A DNA stretch of 64,000 nt, taken from positions 26,290,001 through 26,354,000 of the forward strand of contig OZ249436.1 in NCBI GenBank assembly GCA_965235115.1. Direction: 5' to 3'. Below, in pieces: positions 15,701 to 28,600 of this stretch (positions within the stretch are counted from its first letter, which is position 1; the number at the start of each line of letters is the position of its first letter). The notes under the pieces were generated by a model. That model had not been told where the DNA came from and did no database searches. It was given only the letters and a program-made list of their open reading frames with translations. The DNA is from Laetmonice hystrix. Lineage: Eukaryota. Made by a program: the position numbers and the translations under genes.

Positions 15701-16891
15701 TTTTCTAAGCATGTTTTTTGAGTTTTACGTGTTTACGTTTTGACTTCAAATGACTCGATTTTCCGGGGCAAATCGTGATCAATCGGAGGGGAGGGGCAGA
15801 GAGATTTGAAGGGTCTGACTAGGGTCTGCGTTTTTATATCCGGAGGGATCGTCGGCCCGCGAGTGTAATTAGGTACATCGCCCATGATAATTTAAAATCC
15901 ACGAAACTTTGTCGAAAGTAAAGATCCATAGCCCTGACCTTATCCCAAACCCATAACCCCGGCCCCTACACAGTAGTGTCAAAAGGCTGGTTCTGGCCCA
16001 CTTGGTCCTATGTTATTTCAATGGGAAAAAATGGCCCCCCACAGTCGCCCCCCAAGTACGTGTATGTGGGTCGGCCCCCGGGTGATGTCAGCTAACAAGT
16101 CGGCTCTTGCAGACAATGACGTCGCTATTTATAGTATTTATAGCAACAAGTAACCCTCCCCCCCAACGTCAGCGCTATTTATAGTACCTAACGCCCACAC
16201 TATATATAGGAACACCCCCCCCCCCAACGTCAGCGCTATTTATAGTAACCTTACGAGGAAACCCCCAACCATCTGGCGACACCCGACGCTGATGACCCCA
16301 TGACCCGCCAGCAGAAGCGGGTTCGGAGGTGCGTGCGTACGTCGGGGTATGTCTGTCTGTACGGGTGTATGGGGTGTGTGTGTCTAGGGGTGTGGGGGTG
16401 TATGCGTGTATGTCAAGGACGGATGAGGTTTTCACTCACATATGGGGGTGGGGTCTGTGACCCATAGACCTATAGTGGTTGGGGCATTAGTCGCCGCGGG
16501 AAGGCTGCCCCTAGGAGTACCATCTAAAATTTGGATGCACAAGTCCGAAAGATTTCCCTATCACTACAGTCCACCTAATGTTTCCTCCCTCTGTCTATGT
16601 ACAGGGTGAGTCCACCTAATGTCCCCCCCCCATGTCTCTGTACAGGGTGAGTCCACTTAATGTTTCCTCCCCATCTCTATTATTTACAAATGGACGACCA
16701 TGGGAATCATAAGCAACCATGAATGGTTTACAGCTAAATTAATAGCGTGCCAGTTACCAGTGATAAGTGGTTTACAACTAAATTAATAGCGTGTCAGTGA
16801 CCACAATGATGACAGGTGGTAGTCAGTCCACACTACCTTAAATAGCGTGCTGAAAATGATGCATTATGATGCCCACAGAGTGCCCCCCCCC

Positions 16892-17833
16892 CTACACATC
16901 CCGAATATCAGATTCTCTCACCCACGAGTTATATTTTGGTGGCCAGTGCAACCATCTGACAAACGCCATTTTGTTTTTCCCTTTGCCTTTACGTTTCAAT
17001 ATTTTTTCCACCTTCCACAGATCATCTACATCGACTCTCTGAAGCTCTTGCTGGTAGAACGTCTCAACCACCTCTTCGTTTTGAAAGTCTATTAGTTTGT
17101 AAATGGGGAGACCTTTTCGGTGTAAACGTTTAGAAATTTTGAACACCTCACCGGCCCATTTTTTATCGTATTCTCGACTAAAAGGGTTGGGCAAGTAGGT
17201 GATTCTCACATAGTCACCGATATTAAATTTGAATGGTTTGATTCTTTTCTTAGAAAGGTAGGGCCAGTATAATTTCCACCAAAGGTAAGTTTCGTTTTCC
17301 TTTGACACATCCGCTGGAGCCATCCCGATAGAATGATGGTACCGCGGTAGGTGTGATTGTAGCTATGAGCTATATCGGGAAGTATGTTCACATAGGTGTA
17401 GGTTTGTTTTGCCGTAAAAAATCGATATATTTTGGACTTGACAGTTTTGATGACTCGTTCCGCGTAATTAGCTATGACTTCATTTTGTGTGACAAAATGG
17501 TGGATATTGTTCTTTGTGAAAACAGACTGAACGACCTTAGCTCTGAATTCCTGTCCTTTGTCACTTCGAAGATACTGGGGTTGGCGTCCCTGAGAGAAGA
17601 TCTCTCGAAAGGCCTGGGCTACTTCAGACCCGGCTTTTGTTTTGAGTGGTTTAAGCCATAGGTATCGAGAGAAAAGATCGATCACGACAAGAACGAAGCT
17701 AGTGTCTTTGTTCGATCTGATGTAACGTGTAGCGTTTACCATCGGTCATAGCAGCTCTATACAACTTGGATGCACCACCAAAACTGGCAGGATGTTTTGG
17801 ATCGTAATATACCGATGTCAGGTAGGCGTCCAT
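16892..17833 (-). pseudogene. Polinton retroviral-like integrase with C-terminal chromodomain
   Basis: N-terminus MDAYLTSVYYDPKHPASFGGASKLYRAA (ATG 17833), core VIDLFSRY...SDKGQEF...AERVIKT, C-terminal FNIGDYVR and chromodomain WKVEKILKRK...FVRWLHWPPKYNSWV. An apparent internal deletion near 17730 and a frameshift near 17330 break the frame. Confidence 0.9.
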
Positions 17834-17883
17834 GCTCCTCAGTGTCTGAACCACAAATGGTGAATCAATGTCATTGGCCTCTC

Positions 17884-18470
17884 TTATATATCGTCCTCCT
17901 CCTCCTTCTCGTCCTCCTCCTCCTCGTCCTCCTCCTCCTCCTCCTCCGAATCCGTTTCAAACAGTTCGTCAAATTGCTGTTTATGCTTCGCAAGGGCCCT
18001 TTTGACCGCTTTTCTGGTCGACATTCCATTTTCAATTAATGTCTCGGCCTCGTCAAGAATAGCACTGGTGGTACCATTGGGTCTTAAATCCAGGGCTTTT
18101 TCGAGGTAGTTTCTATACAAAGCGAAGAAACTTGCTTTGCCATCTTCACGCACCAGTCGATCAGCTTTTTTTCAACCTCGTTCCTCTCTACCCCTCTTTT
18201 TGCTAAAACATCCACCTCTCCTTCCCACTGGTTCTCATTTTCCTCACGGGCTTGCTTCAAAAACCGAACCAAGGAAGCATTGTCTCTGACACTTTCTTCT
18301 ATCAGATCATCATCGTCATCATCATGTCTGTCTAACTTTAGCCATTCCCCATCCAGTTCATCATCATGCCGCATCTTTTTGGAAACAGCTACACTTTCTG
18401 GACACCAGTCGCGTACATGTTTGTGTAGATCATATAGATTGGTAAACACCTGTCCACATTGGCTTGGAGG
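17884..18470 (-). pseudogene. Polinton ORF remnant downstream of the ATPase (zinc-finger-like GQVFTNLYDLHKHVRDWC plus acidic tail)
   Basis: Overlapping frameshifted ORFs 18084-18449 and 17884-18153, with a poly-E/D C-terminus. Confidence 0.6.
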
Positions 18471-25664: not shown

Positions 25665-25881
25665 CTTGGGTTGACTGTGTGATGTCTCAATGAAGAGTAA
25701 CTTCTCCGGCTTTGGGTTGATTGTGTGATGTGTACAGGTCGATGTCTCAATGAAGAGTGACTTCTCCAGCTGTGGGTAACTGCTAAATAATAATAATACA
25801 GCGCCTCTATGAGGCTTCTGTGACACTAAACTGGGGCCCTCCATCCACCCCACTGGGGCGGGTCCATCCACCCGCCACATG

Positions 25882-26468
25882 AGACAGGTTCTGCTATCCC
25901 GGTTCCGTCTCCGGCTCCGGCTTAGCACAGCGTCGCGTCATCAGAAAATACCGTGACGTCATCGATACGCACGTTTTTGAAGCTGAGCCGTTCCCGGGTC
26001 CCGAGATAGATCGGCTCTGTCCCGTAAGTGTCTAACGCAGCGTAGGGTTTTCCTCGATTTCTTCTTTCCATGAGTTGACACAATGGATTTGAAGTGTCAA
26101 GTAGTTGGATTAATATTTGAAGACTTTAGTGAATCGGCTGTCAGCACAATTATCTCGTGGTATTTTCAACTATTTTGGTCATAAAGTGATGTGCTGTTTT
26201 GCATTCACTGCAGCTAGGCCGTGTCATCGCATGGCTCTCGCAGGGCGACACAATTTGTCAGAGCAGCCAACTCGACCAAAGTCAAATCACCCGCCATATT
26301 CACTCTTGTGTTTGTTGTTGTTATGTTGTTGTTATGGTAACCTGGCCACTTCCTATTACGCGGCGGCGCCGGCGTAGCAGAACCAAAATACGACGTTCCG
26401 TCTCCGTCTCCGAGATCGGCATAGCCGATCCCGGAGCCGGAGACGGAACGGGATAGCAGAACCTGTCT
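25882..26468. mobile_element. MITE nested in the Polinton subterminal region
   Basis: TIR AGACAGGTTCTGCTATCCCG(G)TTCCGTCTCCGGCTCCGG at both ends; TSD unclear. Confidence 0.8.
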
Positions 26469-28600
26469 AGTATCTCGGCCAAACGTATACGGGCCTGCTT
26501 AACTAGGTCACCTCAGCACCCTACCGGGGTCACGGGGTCATCAGCGTCGGTGCGCCAGATGGTGGGGTTTCCTCCTCAGGTACGCTGACGTTGGGGGGGG
26601 GGTCCTTGTTGCTATAAATACTATTAATAGCGCTGACGTCATTGTCTGCAAGAGCCGACTTGTGCTGAGGGGGGGGGTTGCTATAAATAGCGTGGGTCTC
26701 CTTGTTAGGTACTATAAATAGCGCTGACGTCATCATCTGCAGGCGTCGACTTGTTAGCTGACATCAGCCAGGGGCCGACCCACATATTTGGGGGGCGGCT
26801 GTGGGGGGCCATTTTTTCCCATTGAAATAACATAGGACCAAGTGGGCCAGAACCAGCCTTTTGACACTACTCTACACCTCCCCAAAACATATCCCTATCC
26901 CTATCCCTGACCTTAACCCGAACCCATCCCCCCAAATTTGTGGGGAAGTTATCTTGGGGGAATAACCTGTAACTAGGGTAAGTGTTGTGGCAATCCTTCA
27001 CGGGAGGGCAAAGATATTAGAGAGTTTTAGATTGCGCTCCCGTAAACGCGAGCCGCACGTGTGACGTCACCACGAGCCCCAAATAGCAGCAAATAGCTGG
27101 GGAATCCCTCACACACGGGCGTGACACGCGCGTTTCAAACGTGTAGCTGCTGTCTGAAGGCCAAATGTGGTCGCCGAACCAGAGCCAGACAACATTACGT
27201 AAGTGAAAAGTGACGAACGCAAAGCGCACCCAAGCAGAGTTTACTCGCATTATGCATTGCACCCGGACGACCCTGCAAATCCGTCTGTAATTCGTTTGAC
27301 ATAACCAAAAAGACAGTCGGTAAATATTTCTGAATTATAGCCGATAAGACGGTGCATGAGCACTGTGAACGTCAATGTCCCTTTTCATTGATTGCATAAC
27401 CTGAAATATATTCAGGCCTGGATATCCGATTTGACGAGCCTACCCATATAGTCGGGGATCCACAGGCCCAAAAGCTCAATAAAATGGGTTGGACCTGACA
27501 TGGCCTGCTATACTTTTTGTTTGTCTTTTTTCTATTAATTTGGACATTAAGGTCCACTGAATGAGAGGTCTGCTGTTTGGCCATTTTTGTATATGCGCCC
27601 TTTGTTTTTTTAGCGAAAAATGTGAAAAATGTATTTTTCCTAAAAATCCTCAGTGGGTTGTGTAGGCTGTCAATAAATGCATCCCAGATACACAGAACAC
27701 ATGTGTTGACAACATCAAGTTAAAAAATACACTTACAAAACCTTTCCAAATGATTGAGCACCATTTTTATGCAAAAGCGCCCCTGATTTTTGTGCATTTT
27801 ATTCATTATCTTCATCTTTACTTCATTACTAATCAACTACGCCCTAAGTTATGGCATGAGGCAATGTGCCATTCTTTTCAACAAACATTATAGTCATTCC
27901 ACAGTAAACATTATGAAAATCGAACCAAAATCAATGGACCTGTAATGATTTTATTAACCCTACCCCCATACTGCAAATTGTGGCTAAAACGTCAACATTT
28001 TTTAATTCGTTATTACGACTTAATGACGTCATAAGTCGTTATTACGAGATCACCACAAAACTTTTTCTCTGAAACGATTTTTCTTCATTTTGAACAAATT
28101 TGTCAAAGTTAAACGACTACGTCAAACTATAGGTTGTTACAGCACTGTCAACATTGATCAGTAGGCCTATATGTCTACTTTTAGAGAGCCAAATAATCAT
28201 ATCTGGGTGAAAATTGGCCGGGAGTTGTGAAACGTTTTATCTTCATTGTACGCGAAGTTTGGAGAAGAACAGTATTTCTGCGATGAATGTATCGGTAACT
28301 CGAGGACTAAGTGACGGCTGTCGGTCGGGACATGTGCCCGCCTTCCCGTCAGTGTCAGTGACTGCAAAATGTTCTTGCTAATTTAGCGACACCGAGACAA
28401 ACTATATGTATAACTTCATGTCTACTAAAATTAGGGCATCAAGTTAGACGTTGGTTGTTTTTTTGGATTGCTTTTCGGACAGGCTTATGGTTATATCTTT
28501 GCCCTCCCTTTAATGTAATAATATGTAGGCCTAATAACAATTTCACATTAAGGGGGCAGATTACCCCTCTTTGTAAAGAAGTTGTTACACTTAGGGTTAA

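Follow-up and report, generated by a model that had tools for sequence, protein, structure and literature searches.

The 64,000-nucleotide stretch of Laetmonice hystrix DNA analysed here (the window; all coordinates are positions within it) contains at 15972-26871 a Polinton that encodes a DNA polymerase B of the protein-primed type (pPolB), a long packaging ATPase and an integrase, and in which searches for capsid genes found none. We interpret it, with a probability of about one in two, as an approximately 8-kb member of a capsid-less satellite lineage that would replicate and integrate itself and would likely be packaged in borrowed capsids. Comparison with relatives suggests that this lineage is likely old rather than the result of a one-off deletion. 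The copy in the window is a dead fossil with all three genes broken, a point absent from the preliminary description of this stretch.

Both termini of the copy are of the AGTAGT type (AGTAGTGTCAAAAGG / AGTAGTGTC...), and comparison of the flanks reveals a 6-bp target-site duplication (TSD), CTACAC, at 15966-15971 and 26872-26877 on the plus strand. The left terminal inverted repeat (TIR; 15972-16306, about 335 bp) starts with AGTAGT and contains three internal motif copies of the GACGTC/CGCTATTTATAG type; the right TIR (26527-26871) ends in ACTACT. The outer 91 bp are 97% complementary between the arms, and identity over the whole arm is only 75% (366 columns) because the internal motif, repeated three times, is arranged differently at each end. 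Long TIRs, a short terminal tandem repeat and a 6-bp TSD characterize this element as a Polinton in the transposon sense; without its two inserts (2,453 bp at 19425-21877, and about 25882-26468) the core measures 7.8 to 7.9 kb, below the 15 to 20 kb of capsid-encoding polintoviruses. Termini, TIRs, TSD, inserts and core size all agree with the preliminary description. The gap between integrase and left TIR is short as it had claimed, at about 585 bp from the integrase stop to the inner TIR edge rather than about 650 bp; this spacer (16307-16891) is non-coding, with three 41-bp and two 44-bp repeats and no remnant of a capsid module.

The three genes lie on the minus strand in the order pPolB, ATPase and integrase-chromodomain, and their Pfam matches bear out the one-directional gene set proposed earlier. 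The pPolB gene (22188-25664, minus strand) is in five pieces and encodes N-terminal C2H2 fingers, vOTU-like Cys/His and EndoVII-like Cys regions, and Exo and Pol motifs. The domain order follows PMC11161782. Its match to DNA_pol_B_2 (PF03175; E 4.5e-8) identifies it as a protein-primed polymerase, and it is 76% identical to an intact pPolB of 1,186 amino acids (P0122), to which it aligns as four frame segments; its decay comprises three frameshifts and one in-frame stop. The ATPase gene (17884-19390, minus strand) encodes a C2H2 finger, an A32/FtsK-type ATPase, a second zinc finger, a helical domain and an acidic tail. Pox_A32 matches (E 0.001-0.004 per piece) place it in the A32/FtsK family of packaging ATPases, with what we take to be Walker A, Walker B and RRN motifs; one stop and two frameshifts interrupt it. 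The third gene (16892-17833, minus strand) is recognizable as an rve integrase with a C-terminal chromodomain (rve E 5.6e-11, Chromo E 1.1e-7) though it is broken by a frameshift near 17,330-17,400 and the loss of about 45 codons near 17,700 (contig joint 17688>17721).

As the preliminary description had suspected, no capsid, penton or protease gene could be found. Related loci yielded profiles for the major capsid protein (MCP) and protease, of 15 rows each, and for penton and core protein, of 13 and nine rows; these were searched against 305 six-frame segments covering 15 to 27.5 kb of the window, and the best matches had E values of 2.2, 0.82, 1.6 and 1.4, respectively, so that none of the MCP, protease and penton genes that define capsid-encoding polintoviruses and adintoviruses was recognized. 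Used as a control, the integrase profile recovered each of the three pieces of that gene, with E 1e-7 for the shortest. A tblastn search of the element for capsid-module genes gave a best E of 0.58, and the element has no unassigned stretch long enough for about 440 codons. In the relatives, the MCP, penton and core proteins are presumably what we call them; the labels derive from their size and position, from homology among themselves and from the usual gene sets of Polintons, because Pfam named none of those scanned (0 of 3 MCPs and 0 of 3 pentons), and the proteases matched weakly (Peptidase_C5 in three of four, C48 in one). A match of the 'PWX' profile to the window (E 0.0012) was discarded, as it lay on the ATPase itself and the profile contained ATPase-bearing rows; the weak one-row 'SML' profile reached a best window E of 0.12.

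The ATPase is a marker of the lineage. In quick and FastTree phylogenies, it belongs to a clade of zinc-finger/ATPase/helical/acidic proteins of 450 to 640 amino acids, compared with about 220 for canonical Polinton ATPases; the canonical capsid-bearing Polintons (contigs of G001, G176, G185 and G439, and locus L059) have ATPases of the short size and fall outside this clade. The nearest relatives comprise 465 matches; the 120 listed are mostly 400 to 580 amino acids long, and the named ones among them are from bivalves (Mytilus, Mercenaria, Mizuhopecten, Pecten, Mya, Ruditapes, Pinctada and Solemya). Relatives share the layout of C2H2 finger, ATPase, second finger, helical domain and acidic tail, and the closest cluster (n = 10) includes intact proteins of 634-635 amino acids. 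Those with both the same motor and the integrase come from molluscs and animal-derived metagenome contigs. A structural model of an intact relative's ATPase core (pLDDT 94) has its best PDB matches in STIV B204 packaging NTPases (E 9e-8) and also resembles adenovirus IVa2 and A32-like packaging ATPases, which predicts a packaging-ATPase fold for the core. For the modelled C-terminal domain of the ATPase (pLDDT 88), no known fold matched convincingly (Foldseek, best E 0.1; VIA, best Z 6.8), and in the ESM Atlas the zinc finger alone was recognized; this poor match indicates neither a new fold nor a function. No match came from searching PDB sequences with the ATPase profile or from IMG/VR scans with an ATPase piece, the ATPase alignment and a terminal 19-mer.

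To place these ATPases in their gene neighbourhoods, 85 loci (80 kept of 92, plus five added), every one found through its ATPase, were compared. They divide into 22 replication-type loci, with a long ATPase and pPolB and/or integrase, 14 capsid-type loci, with a related long ATPase and capsid-module genes, eight canonical loci and 41 uninformative ones. The integrase lies directly 3' of the long ATPase in 15 loci (14 distinct), a pPolB of the window's type immediately precedes the ATPase in three, and the other PolB type, divergently oriented, is present in six. Locus L005 has the same pPolB-ATPase-integrase order as the window, and six gene models of Mya arenaria and one of Mytilus coruscus fuse the ATPase to the integrase. 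None of the 22 replication-type loci had a capsid-module profile match, and none of the 14 capsid-type loci shows a PolB or integrase. Among ten ATPase-integrase loci with at least 350 bp beyond the integrase (nine distinct; seven with at least 1 kb, and 8.2 kb in L002), no capsid gene follows the integrase; by contrast, each of the ten canonical loci with capsid genes has a penton gene no more than about 330 bp from its integrase. The contig of locus L004, 10.6 kb long and with a PolB of the other type, carries an inverted repeat at each end but stops short of the true termini, and it gave no capsid match. The ACTACT motifs 3' of the integrase in both L002 and L007 are unconfirmed as termini. 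Overlapping scans of 301, 122 and 201 symbiont genomes contributed nothing beyond short fragments and canonical Polintons with short ATPases. The animal Polinton contigs in symbiont bins G001, G002, G003, G176, G185, G247, G403 and G439 are host contamination, and G001 also holds many retrotransposon-like integrases.

Phylogenies of the neighbouring genes recover the same association. In a tree of integrase C-termini (31 rows), a single clade (97/96) unites the window integrase with 16 that are linked to long ATPases, as against 14 others, 11 of which are capsid-linked by the data, the remaining three (L099 and L130, labelled 'canon', and P0286) showing no capsid gene; the integrase core tree (22 rows) groups the window with seven long-ATPase-linked integrases (88/89). 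A 14-row clade (FastTree 96) contains the pPolBs of the window, L001 and L005; it leaves the capsid-linked pPolBs outside and includes L113, which shows no ATPase. These linkage and tree patterns indicate that the integrase and the long ATPase travel together and that the polymerase swaps between two types. Polymerase exchange has been reported for nematode Polintons (bioRxiv 2023.08.22.554363). In L016, L024, L039, L043, L061 and L062 the integrase gene is interrupted at one common position, as if by a spliceosomal intron, and the window integrase is continuous at this putative site.

Selection on the ATPase core was estimated from pairwise ratios of non-synonymous to synonymous substitution (dN/dS) by a counting method, from non-independent pairs with 0.05<dS<1.5. 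Most pairs have ratios of 0.08-0.27, indicating that the long ATPase is under purifying selection in the relatives. For replication-type loci, ten pairs among 21 loci have a median of 0.245 (range 0.08-0.92); medians are 0.18 in the clade with L039 (10 pairs) and 0.11 in the clade with L015 (11 pairs), and the two capsid-type pairs are at 0.05.

Contigs from three public runs of one sample contain about half of the sampled window words, and this sample is possibly the window's own source. Depth in these contigs cannot rank genes and is not a copy number. The unique left flank is covered at a depth of 25-62 with 0-1 differences, and the 3' half of the integrase at 344-633 with about 2% to 3% differences, one contig spanning the integrase stop by 61 bases. 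In a second set, about 20% diverged (depth 463-826), the integrase end is joined to the same spacer motifs. The integrase-to-spacer junction, whose uniqueness the preliminary description had listed among its refuting conditions, is thus not unique. Depths over the ATPase (110-530), the integrase (490-1,290) and pPolB (1,090-2,960) were not used as copy numbers, and contigs free of insert 2 occur at 223-315. Among the 15 of 178 joints listed, none crosses insert 1, so that the link between pPolB and ATPase in other copies of this organism is unsupported by the listed joints.

Long ATPases also occur beside capsid genes. Locus L036, about 6 kb, starts with AGTAGTAG, has inverted repeats of about 700 bp and encodes only MCP, protease, ATPase, penton and core protein, all intact (123-6013), with no polymerase or integrase; L038 is 98% identical to it. 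L050 shares its terminus (86% over 169 bp) and has a different gene set. In L081, which has about 80% DNA identity to canonical Polintons of the same assembly through core, MCP and protease, a long ATPase occupies the slot of the short one, and the following 3.5 kb contain no polymerase. In L011 (472-1971) and P0043, the ATPase is fused in frame to an adenain-like protease. These contexts (L036, L081, L011 and P0043) tie the long ATPase to a predicted role in virion assembly. The replication-type and capsid-type gene sets are complementary, and a shared terminus was seen solely for the capsid-type pair L036 and L050. A 4.2-kb element bounded by inverted repeats (L028, 1-4242) combines a long ATPase with two small open reading frames (ORFs) and a CARD-RING gene that is likely anti-apoptotic or immune cargo. 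Among the long-ATPase or related elements L025, L026, L082 and L126, Pfam identifies PC4, and other ORFs are, by their motifs, presumably TBP-like and BIR-like.

In the satellite interpretation, the terminal-protein/vOTU/pPolB polyprotein would drive protein-primed replication from the AGT-repeat ends, and the rve integrase would insert the product with a 6-bp TSD. Both pPolB replication and rve integration are established Polinton biology (PMC11161782, PMC8097293). The added zinc fingers may bind the repeated TIR motifs, making the motor specific for the element's own DNA, and the capsid would be supplied by canonical Polintons or by capsid-only elements with related long ATPases. Phage satellites redirect their helper's packaging in an analogous way. 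That an ATPase is kept under selection with no capsid in cis would be explained most simply by packaging in trans, and loading of a helper's capsid by this motor is favoured by the long ATPases found in capsid operons and protease fusions.

Several observations weigh against this interpretation. The helper and the virion are postulated, gene context being the indirect evidence for packaging in particles. The ubiquity of the ATPase among the loci is a selection effect, because the loci were found through it; the neighbours fall outside the short contigs in 41 of the 85, and the relatives are for the most part fragmentary. No foreign replication-type element with both termini and a TSD occurs among the 85 loci, and a non-coding all-against-all comparison of these, most of which are contigs without ends, revealed no TIR common to replication-type and capsid-type loci. 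The L036 ATPase is of a sister type that lacks the helical acidic tail. In L025 a long ATPase occurs together with a short one, compatible with a non-packaging role of the long form, and the four highest dN/dS ratios (0.47-0.92) all involve decayed copies. Insert 1, with neither a clear TSD nor a listed joint, may mark a deletion at that site in this copy. Finally, gene order alone proves nothing because in L129, a canonical capsid-bearing locus with a short ATPase, the order pPolB-ATPase-x-integrase heads an element that continues into penton, core, MCP and protease.

The window element could instead be a purely intracellular self-synthesizing transposon whose ATPase was repurposed, for example as a DNA translocase or as a chromatin- or end-binding factor in replication or integration. 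This we regard as possible though unlikely. The extra zinc fingers, helical domain and acidic tail would suit such a role, as would purifying selection with no capsid in cis and the two ATPases of L025, and capsid-less Polintons have been interpreted as pure transposons before (PMC4405056). It is harder to reconcile with the presence of long ATPases in 14 capsid-module loci, where one has replaced the short form and two are fused to proteases, and with the 72-element table of PMC4028283, in which nine of the 13 Polintons without MCP also lack the ATPase. The complementary gene sets admit a decidedly less probable alternative, an obligately split (bipartite or multipartite) Polinton of molluscs and related animals. 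Replication and integration elements of about 8 kb and capsid or accessory elements of 3 to 6 kb, with matching ends, would complement each other in trans, and the zinc-finger ATPase of each segment would mark its own DNA for encapsidation. The absence of overlap between the 22 replication-type and 14 capsid-type loci, which are interleaved in the ATPase tree, is consistent with this, as are the TIR-bounded capsid-only L036, the same terminus with other genes in L050, and the inverted-repeat-bounded L028. No TIR is shared between the two types among these contigs, most of which lack their ends, however, and Polintons that bear capsid genes but no polymerase are already known, as ordinary non-autonomous derivatives (bioRxiv 2025.02.07.637071).

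We give little credence to the proposal that capsid-less families recur in each host from larger parents with pPolB, long ATPase, integrase and capsid genes that short loci have missed. The contigs are indeed short, long ATPases do co-occur with capsid genes, and L129 proves that such a gene order exists with a capsid module; yet its ATPase is short and, like its integrase, lies outside the long-ATPase-linked clades, and in none of the ten informative loci is the integrase followed by a capsid gene. A one-off deletion confined to this locus, the alternative raised in the preliminary description, would fit the heavy decay and nested inserts of the copy, but is very improbable and largely refuted. 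The integrase end is covered far more deeply than the unique flank and its stop is bridged, contigs diverged by about 20% carry the same spacer motifs, and the end block is found in other animals. The satellite lineage proposed at the outset accords with these data and with the lack of capsid remnants, the ATPase-integrase block in 15 foreign loci and the integrase clade.

Like Polintons/Mavericks (class Polintoviricetes; adintoviruses), the window element has a pPolB with a vOTU-like domain, an rve integrase with chromodomain, an A32/FtsK ATPase, long TIRs with AGT-repeat ends and a 6-bp TSD. It differs in lacking MCP, penton, core protein and Ulp1-like protease, in the ATPase of its lineage (about 500-640 amino acids with zinc fingers and acidic tail, rather than about 220) and in its integrase, which is the last gene and faces the TIR. 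Module-less Polintons such as those of Trichomonas and Danio N1 are likewise TIR-bounded and capsid-less but have lost the ATPase too, whereas the window lineage appears to have kept it, enlarged and under purifying selection. Phage satellites with their own packaging-specificity protein are capsid-less DNA carried in another virus's particle. Transpovirons, too, are capsid-less DNA with their own replicase carried in the particle of another virus (PMC11161782); they encode pPolB-helicase fusions and are parasites of giant viruses, and helper use by the window lineage is postulated from its genes.

At 7.8 to 7.9 kb the window element is smaller than all 72 elements in Table S1 of PMC4028283 (smallest 10,272 bp). 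In that source 13 of the 72 Polintons lack MCP, nine of these also lacking ATPase and protease. Two single rows of the table, P_Pd1.1 of Platynereis (10,777 bp) and P_Gi1.2 of Glomus (11,019 bp), are scored MCP-, penton- and protease-negative and ATPase-positive, a comparison by presence and absence of genes. The presence/absence pattern is thus already tabulated for two Polintons of about 11 kb, and the lineage itself appears undescribed. Neither a capsid-less lineage with long ATPases nor segmented Polintons was found in the literature searched, including passages of PMC8502044, PMC11071296 and PMC11296320; the search did not extend to Repbase, subscription journals or the supplements of preprints, and the unread supplements of adintovirus papers may contain such genomes.

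No Polinton virion has been observed (bioRxiv 2026.06.19.733378). A lineage that dropped its capsid genes and kept its packaging ATPase under purifying selection would provide indirect evidence of packaging in trans. Such elements would be discarded by the criteria of a coral survey (MCP, penton and ATPase, at least 10 kb; PMC11131425), and bivalve genomes are rich in Polinton-class regions (bioRxiv 2025.04.19.649669). If the element is one segment of a split genome, it would belong to a multipartite double-stranded DNA virus of animals, which would stay hidden because surveys demand capsid and replication genes in one block of at least 10 kb. If its ATPase was repurposed, it would offer a clear example of viral-motor exaptation in the transition from virus to transposon.

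The remaining features of the window are as follows. Insert 1 (19425-21877) is a decayed non-LTR reverse-transcriptase fragment between inverted repeats of about 370-450 bp, for which no clear TSD was found. The bounding repeats are copies of the fragment's own 3' end and may reflect two head-to-head insertions at one site. Within it lies insert 3, a short element (20954-21234, 280 bp) with 12-bp inverted ends and very high contig depth. In the spacer at 21878-22187 (minus strand), the pPolB stop is followed by a polyA signal, and a TATA box at 21960-21965 is directed towards the ATPase; insert 2 resembles a miniature inverted-repeat transposable element with 20-bp inverted ends. The target site is itself a high-copy repeat, as many contigs carry it empty; this host repeat (15800-15971 and 26872-27000) has very high copy and consists of CCCTAACC-like units. 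Elsewhere, translations point to the pol of a long-terminal-repeat retrotransposon with long open frames (60334-63998, minus strand) and to a decayed long interspersed element with RNase H (47348-48719, minus strand). Palindromic elements occur at 28597-29131 and 35965-37091, and a tandem array with a period of about 38 bp at 51487-53247.

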